A DNA stretch of 62,890 bases from an uncultured Candidatus Saccharibacteria bacterium (lineage in GTDB: Bacteria > Patescibacteriota > Minisyncoccia > Sungbacterales > HO2-52-23), in the NCBI GenBank assembly GCA_964361695.1, contig CAYIBQ010000001.1, forward strand, positions 1 to 62,890. The letters run 5' to 3'. Made by a program: the position numbers and the translations under genes. The notes below the pieces were generated by a model. It was not told where the DNA came from and ran no database searches. It saw nothing but the letters and a program-made list of their open reading frames with translations. Below are positions 27,855-28,025 of this stretch, piece after piece (the stretch's first letter is position 1; every line of letters begins with the position of its first letter).

Positions 27855-28025
27855 CAGGGTTTAGGATTTAGGGATTAGGTGATAGAATAGATGTCAGGTT
27901 GCAGGTGTTAGGGTTTAGTTTAAGAAGATGCTCTTTCTAAGACCTGAAACCTAACGCCTGAAATCTCCAACCTATAACCTAAAACCTGATCCCTGCGACC
28001 TAAATCCTACAATCTAAAACCGATT
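27855..28025. repeat. Inverted block of 7-nt-phased AGG heptads (left half) and CCT heptads (right half) in a divergent intergenic region
   Basis: CCT or a 1-nt variant starts at 27943, 50, 57, 64, 71, 78, 85, 92, 99, 28006, 13 and 20, which is 12 units in perfect 7-nt phase. AGG starts at 27856, 63, 70, 77 and again at 27896, 27903, 27910. The two halves are roughly reverse-complementary around ~27930. Confidence 0.8.

Follow-up and report, generated by a model that had tools for sequence, protein, structure and literature searches.

Tandem repeats with a 7-nt unit are known upstream of start codons that have no ribosome-binding site in Beggiatoaceae, cyanobacteria and Bacteroidetes. TAACTGA repeats in particular occur in marine Beggiatoaceae, cyanobacteria and Bacteroidetes, and binding of S1, Csp or CsrA has been proposed for such heptamer repeats (PMC4679880). 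GGGAATC heptamers are found in Xanthomonas and Nostoc (PMC4692102), and regulatory effects of heptamer repeats in Nostoc are reported in a preprint (10.1101/2022.06.06.494920). In rRNA intervening sequences, inverted repeats are known to surround a PF05635 gene. The S23p ORFs of these sequences encode PF05635 proteins, and RNase III cuts or excises the terminal stems of the sequences (PMC4990558). A first-pass annotation of the locus analyzed here knew of no described element with its architecture. That the architecture is undescribed is not supported, since both heptanucleotide repeats by start codons (PMC4679880, PMC4692102) and PF05635 inverted repeats (PMC4990558) have been published. Our literature search found no published reports of heptamer repeats in Patescibacteria and no papers linking heptamer repeats to PF05635.

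The stretch of DNA analyzed (the window, 62,890 nucleotides) belongs to a Patescibacteria MAG (G000; 0.88 Mb in 114 contigs, 52% G+C, 92% completeness). Within it, a hybrid histidine kinase gene (26105-27784, minus strand; PAS, HisKA, HATPase and REC domains) and the gene for a 1385-aa secreted/surface protein (28035-32192, plus strand, TTG start) diverge from a 250-nt gap. The surface protein contains DUF2341, LamG and fn3 domains, a purple-acid-phosphatase N-terminal domain and a C-terminal redoxin domain. The likely promoter of the kinase gene, predicted from sequence on the minus strand, has its -35 box (TTGTTT) at 27832-27837 and its -10 box (TATAAT) at 27810-27815.

In the right half of the gap, CCT starts in a single 7-nt phase at 27943, 27950, 27957, 27971, 27978, 27985, 27992, 27999 and 28006. 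The register is held by TCT (27964 and 28013) and CCG (28020), which gives a right arm of 12 heptads (27943-28026, plus strand): CCTGAAA, CCTAACG, CCTGAAA, TCTCCAA, CCTATAA, CCTAAAA, CCTGATC, CCTGCGA, CCTAAAT, CCTACAA, TCTAAAA and CCGATTC. TRF describes the same arm as period 7 with 12.1 copies and 61% matches. The head-to-tail 7-nt units, 12 in the right arm and 4 + 3 in the left, fall short of the perfect or near-perfect units of a simple sequence repeat. The CCT and AGG cores are kept, the remaining unit positions vary, and adjacent units are never identical. In-phase runs in the 250-nt gap reach 9 for CCT and 13 for CCT/TCT/CCG. The corresponding maxima in 2000 dinucleotide-preserving shuffles of the gap were 3 and 5, and none of the 2000 matched the arrays. 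Periods of 5, 6, 8 and 9 gave runs of 1-3, which is chance level.

The left half carries AGG at 27856, 27863, 27870 and 27877 and again at 27896, 27903 and 27910. The first block (27856-27883, plus strand; AGGGTTT, AGGATTT, AGGGATT, AGGTGAT) overlaps a putative -35 box; the second (27896-27921, plus strand; AGGTTGC, AGGTGTT, AGGGTTT, AG...) is shifted by 5 nt relative to it and pairs with 27944-27975 (inverted repeat I1). The inverted-repeat arms in the gap measure 32 nt (72%) and 26 nt (77%), and both complementary heptad arms have period 7. Between them lies an apical loop, AAGAAGATGCTCTTTCTAAGA (27922-27942, plus strand), of 21 nt with no gene and no gene remnant. The entire imperfect hairpin or cruciform (27856-28008) is predicted to have 57 bp. 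The plus-strand RNA folds as a single hairpin with 49 Watson-Crick and 8 G-U pairs (-67.9 kcal/mol, z = -7.4), compared with -54.4 kcal/mol and z = -2.75 for the minus-strand RNA; the single-stranded DNA fold has z = -4.2. The array is intergenic and close to a start codon without a Shine-Dalgarno sequence: its last heptad ends 8 nt ahead of the TTG at 28035, with no GGAGG in between. No terminator was called in the element.

Much of what the first-pass annotation had read from this spacer stands. It had judged the spacer to be no ordinary DNA and had counted 12 right-arm heptads in perfect register; both are borne out, and the 7-nt phasing lies far beyond the chance level of shuffled sequence. 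The 5-nt offset between two left-hand blocks is real, but about 10 AGG heptads were claimed where 7 are clear. The halves are complementary and can form a hairpin of more than 55 bp, and the last heptad is close to the TTG.

The right arm is the sole array with at least five in-phase CCT in the entire genome, and blastn and nhmmer searches of the genome return the element alone, without a second copy. Period 7 itself is common in this genome. An autocorrelation scan located 32 period-7 regions, as against no more than 3 for any other period in the range 2-15, and TRF agrees. Most of these regions belong to one family of imperfect palindromes of ~140 nt (family A), in which a CA-rich arm of CCAAATN heptads is followed by a loop, AAACGCGCGTTT, and a GT-rich arm of ATTTGGN heptads. 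A profile HMM run over the genome recovers ~30 copies. Family A copies fill the space between the stop codon of a gene and the start codon of the gene that follows; they are found at rpmJ|rpsM, rpsM|rpsK, rpsD|rpoA and rpoA|rplQ, at four pilin-like genes, and at murG and ruvC. Their orientation relative to the flanking genes is the same in 21 cases and opposed in 2. The window element was considered as a member of family A and rejected: the profile HMM has no match at the site, and the polarity is opposite, with the G-rich arm first. It does not bridge the stop and start codons of co-directional genes either, as its flanking genes are divergent.

Several family A copies lie within a single operon, rpmJ-rpsM-rpsK-rpsD-rpoA-rplQ (G000:C19:1-3800, minus strand). 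In the four pilin-like genes (G000:C3:14020-16345, minus strand; GFTLLE motif) no ATG precedes the prepilin motif, and the only canonical start is a TTG within the last heptads of the family A right arm. Heptads are also seen in frame within coding genes, as CCTACAA/CCTAAAA units at G000:C68:2649-2697, L026 (G001:C93), L015 (G014:C5) and L022 (G004:C3). There they encode inserts of the ...LQPTTHNLQ... type in a FemAB-like, a GlyRS-like and an IleRS-like gene; the insert in the IleRS-like gene occupies the identical site in two genera.

The single PF05635 ORF of the genome (123 aa, 54.7 bits; C5:25615-25854) lies in a complete cassette (G000:C5:25446-25936, minus strand) composed of a family A left arm, the ORF and a family A right arm. 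Gene-less family A copies keep the ATGAC... start of this ORF, and about its first 30 nt, in the CAATGACC block. The major hairpin family of the genome derives from one such PF05635 cassette. The same arrangement is widespread in the CPR family, where 27 of 36 genomes have a PF05635 gene, with up to six copies each. The flanks of 24 of 27 PF05635 copies are complementary (z > 3), and period 7 scores best in the upstream arm of 20 copies and in the downstream arm of 18. The arms in G010 (AATTAGG... / CCTAAAT...) and G022 (GTAGGAA... / CCTAC...) resemble the window units. Two PF05635 cassettes with inverted repeat arms were observed in the 5' region of 16S rRNA genes (L135, G016:C22; L140, G023:C81). 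No PF05635 ORF lies between the window arms, whose 21-nt loop leaves no room for the ORF of complete cassettes; the window element would be the gene-less form.

Arrays like those in the window recur beyond this genome. Six in-phase CCTNNNN units are present in 5 of 62 genomes of the order, and a sample of 301 genomes from across the phylum includes 34 with four in-phase CCTANNN units; a reversed-pattern control also matched some genomes, via other heptad arrays. Eight of nine sampled relatives have a period-7 excess. G013, G022 and G002 match the architecture of the window element exactly. In these genomes the order is stop codon, G-rich arm (CTAGGCN, GTAGGAA or GTAGGNN), short loop, C-rich arm (GCCTAAA repeated 4-9 times, CCTACCT, CCTACAA or CTACAAG) and, after 2-8 nt, ATG; one array in G013 is a perfect eightfold GCCTAAA. 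These elements precede rpsE, rplT, groEL, hpf, rpsM, rpsK and rpsD. The first-pass annotation had proposed that further CCTNNNN arrays be sought in this genome and its relatives, and it is in the relatives, ahead of ribosomal-protein and chaperone genes, that they are found. At orthologous ribosomal-protein spacers, four of five relatives (G001, G002, G013 and G022) have heptad hairpins built of unrelated units; in the fifth (G003) the palindromes are shorter and not clearly heptadic. Since the same spacers hold entirely different units, it is the architecture that is kept and not the sequence. Heptad spelling varies between genomes and also between the spacers of one genome.

On balance, we think it probable that the window element is a degenerate singleton without a gene, belonging to a class of heptad-armed hairpins that occupy intergenic DNA in Patescibacteria, and not a dedicated switch for the surface-protein gene. 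The class is defined by two inverted arms of tandem 7-nt units with a conserved core of 3-4 nt (AGG/TAGG and CCT/CCTA in the window). Complete members enclose the small four-helix-bundle gene PF05635, and gene-less members are bare hairpins. Its occurrence across genome, family and phylum is shown here, as is the shared polarity (G-rich arm, loop, CCTA arm, start codon) in relatives. Within the known heptamer repeats, the class represents a variant whose arrays are paired in a hairpin; it is also related to the cassettes of rRNA intervening sequences. Descent of the window element itself from a PF05635 cassette may be argued from its architecture; the lack of a second copy in the genome, the lack of a gene remnant in the loop and the divergent flanking genes are misfits to a cassette-derived class. 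The copy would have arrived by insertion, or grown in place via 7-nt slippage, in an accessory region and would then have decayed, so that it presumably no longer slips. As to function, we infer that the hairpin is selfish or neutral and that RNase III probably processes it. The paired stem, if transcribed, would be a likely RNase III substrate by analogy with the stems of rRNA intervening sequences; a predicted stem of about 20 bp or more and an RNase III gene, at G000:C101, are both present. Any effect on the surface-protein gene would probably be modest, the hairpin defining or stabilizing the 5' end of the transcript and the array providing an open Shine-Dalgarno-free leader.

The proposal that the element serves the giant surface-protein gene as its own switch or sponge is not supported: elements of the same kind occupy dozens of housekeeping spacers in G000 and in its relatives. 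HutP (PF09021) and CsrA (PF02599) genes were not found in the 92%-complete genome, in searches whose controls matched. The genome has one cold-shock-domain gene.

The window locus is an accessory region. Among 40 relatives, the 1385-aa protein has its sole full-length ortholog in G015 (61% identity). The kinase ortholog is also found in G015 only (58% identity), on a separate contig from the surface-protein ortholog, and neither gene has an ortholog in the three genomes of the same genus. Elsewhere in the window (12203-13816, minus strand) lies a paralog that matches the surface protein in its N-terminal part, with 33% identity across residues 35-560, and has one in-frame TAA.

The conserved feature upstream of the surface-protein gene is a promoter-associated motif. 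The 14-mer TGTGGATAAAATCA (27843-27856, plus strand) abuts the left end of the hairpin, and an identical 14-mer is found upstream of the G015 ortholog. Both orthologs have TGTGGATAAAATCA, then 22-23 nt, then TGATAGAAT in the window or TGATAAACT in G015. The shorter form, TGTGGATAA, has 42 sites in the 880-kb genome, where ~7 are expected (~6-fold excess), most of them between genes. Measured from the motif start, the offsets of a -10-like hexamer have a peak at 37-41 nt downstream, with 14 of 40 sites in it; in the window the offset is 40. In its behavior, the TGTGGATAA motif resembles an upstream promoter element rather than a set of DnaA boxes. In the window, TGTGGATAA(C) is at 27843-27851, and other sites are seen at, for example, 3977, 6845, 14006, 14787, 15496 and 36499. 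The putative extended -10 box, TGATAGAAT (27880-27888, plus strand), falls within the genome-wide peak of offsets, and a putative -35 box, TTTAGG (27860-27865, plus strand), is suggested by the 17-nt spacing to TAGAAT. A simple sigma-70 scan did not call the putative TGATAGAAT promoter of the surface-protein gene.

With these elements, transcription is predicted to start near 27895, and the conserved promoter thus probably initiates inside the left arm. This would turn the outer left arm into promoter DNA, overlapped by TGTGGATAAAATCA, the -35 box and TGATAGAAT. An mRNA from ~27895 would keep the inner hairpin alone (27896-27973), and ~50 nt, corresponding to the last ~7 CCU heptads, would form an unpaired, G-poor leader up to the start codon. 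Upstream of its annotated start, the 1385-aa gene has a reading frame that stays open as far as 27990; translated, this stretch would give SLRPKSYNLKPILAS, including K/R residues such as are expected where a signal peptide begins. No ATG, GTG or TTG lies in this open upstream frame (27990-28037 region). The G015 ortholog starts 15 codons earlier, at an ATG, which makes the TTG start in the window uncertain, and the last heptads might be translated.

The predicted start site bears directly on a different reading, in which the whole 57-bp hairpin is transcribed and acts as a gene-specific 5'-UTR riboregulator that controls stability or translation of the surface-protein mRNA, perhaps via a factor linked to the neighboring two-component genes. 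The plus-strand hairpin is very stable and folds 13 kcal/mol better than the minus strand, and both TCT variants of the CCT core, C-to-T changes, keep G-U pairing. Such a fold advantage could mean selection on the full-length RNA hairpin, though the asymmetry does not hold throughout the class: among 23 family A copies the better fold belongs to the sense strand in 11, and among 16 hairpins of other genomes in 6, so we do not count it as evidence of RNA-level selection. At the G015 ortholog, too, a long hairpin separates the shared motif from the start codon. That hairpin, however, is a non-heptadic palindrome of ~125 nt with at least 45 copies in G015, and as a copy of a dispersed family it is not orthologous to the window hairpin. 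Two orthologs with different resident palindromes argue against a gene-specific structure. The first-pass annotation had counted conservation upstream of orthologous genes as a test of its reading; at the G015 ortholog the promoter motif is kept and the heptads are not. The G015 palindrome (L002, G015:C8:16062-16195) is G/C-rich and dispersed, with 77-95% identity between copies. The window element has no Rfam match up to E = 1, and the conserved promoter, as predicted, would place the start within the left arm and not ahead of it. We regard a dedicated riboregulator as unlikely.

The favored reading, a decayed copy of a hairpin class, can be extended into a more ambitious one. The heptad arms may be the working part of an undescribed, phylum-wide intervening sequence of messenger RNA: selfish PF05635 cassettes and gene-less hairpins would insert at gene boundaries and in rRNA and be cut out at the heptad stem, either by RNase III or aided by the four-helix-bundle protein, and decayed copies would be co-opted as a promoter and an open Shine-Dalgarno-free leader for newly acquired genes. 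Cutting the cassettes from the transcript would allow the host to tolerate them. If true, the heptamer (STRR) repeats of cyanobacteria and other phyla, long without an explanation, would be accounted for as well. We offer it as a speculative proposal that we consider unlikely.

At the level of DNA, the arms could be a phased array or promoter architecture in which a regulator, for example a response regulator of the adjacent kinase cluster, binds 7-bp-spaced TTAGG/CCTAA cores in the divergent promoter region, or in which the palindrome extrudes as a cruciform. In its favor, the cores are conserved and the spacer positions vary, the left arm shares sequence with the putative -35 box and the promoter spacer, class hairpins are as symmetric as DNA palindromes, and SARP regulators in Streptomyces are reported to bind heptameric direct repeats (PMC5930380). 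The spellings nevertheless differ between genomes and between spacers within a genome, and no single sequence-specific binder can therefore explain the class. Most copies, moreover, sit within operons, where they separate a stop codon from a start codon, and not in promoters, and a 7-bp spacing would set successive sites on different faces of the helix. Taken together, these points make a DNA-binding array distinctly improbable. The slippage-prone, phase-variable contingency switch for the adhesin-like gene that the first-pass annotation had also entertained is very improbable: a tandem repeat does lie directly upstream of the surface-protein gene, and relatives hold perfect, evidently expanding arrays, but the window has no identical adjacent units, its units are too dissimilar at 61% matches for efficient slippage to be expected, the array is outside the reading frame as annotated, and the same arrays stand ahead of ribosomal-protein and chaperone genes in relatives.

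As a decayed copy, the window element is by itself of little consequence, and the class to which we assign it matters more. Ultra-small genomes that have shed nearly everything still give many of their spacers, even those of ribosomal-protein operons, to hairpins of 7-base repeats, and the architecture of these hairpins persists while their sequence is replaced from species to species. Tying the hairpins to PF05635 cassettes gives the heptamer repeats of bacteria, for which there has been no explanation since 1990, an origin that is concrete and can be tested. A further prediction, for organisms about whose gene regulation next to nothing is known, is that RNase III processing takes place at the boundaries between genes.

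Comparison with described systems places the element as follows. The RNA target of HutP is UAG-N4-UAG-N4-UAG, and that of TRAP consists of 11 (G/U)AG repeats. The window element resembles these in having UAG/AGG triplets at a fixed short spacing in the 5' arm of a leader hairpin; it differs in that no HutP gene was found in the genome and in that the heptad cores vary by spacer and by genome.

With REP/REPIN and MITE-like repeats (PMC3116915), the class shares imperfect intergenic hairpins of ~100-150 nt that are tolerated inside operons, and many-copy families (family A, ~30 copies in G000; at least 45 copies of the palindrome in G015). REP/REPIN elements are recognized by many near-identical copies and by a cognate RAYT with the same palindrome, and the window element has neither; it is a single copy, with no target-site duplication seen. 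Four Y1_Tnp genes (IS200/RAYT-like, 216-242 aa) are encoded in the genome, at G000:C41:5148-5408, C106:1110-1334, C38:5427-5648 and C8:20345-20575, and at least three of them have a short perfect palindrome of their own on either side. A RAYT/REPIN link of the window element was rejected, as these flanking palindromes are unrelated and non-heptadic.

The STRR repeats of Calothrix and Nostoc and the other heptamer repeats are like the window array in their 7-nt unit, their intergenic position, an array end only a few nucleotides from a start codon without a Shine-Dalgarno sequence, and a lineage-specific spelling. Unlike them, the window array is paired with an inverted complementary array into a long hairpin, its units share a core of only 3-4 nt, and its host is a member of the Patescibacteria. 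The rRNA intervening sequences of Coxiella, Leptospira and other bacteria (PMC4990558) differ from the window copy, which has no ORF, lies between protein-coding genes and has a stem built of heptads. They are like the class in that inverted terminal repeats form a stem around a four-helix-bundle gene, and in the CPR family the PF05635 gene lies between heptad arms, twice within 16S rRNA genes.
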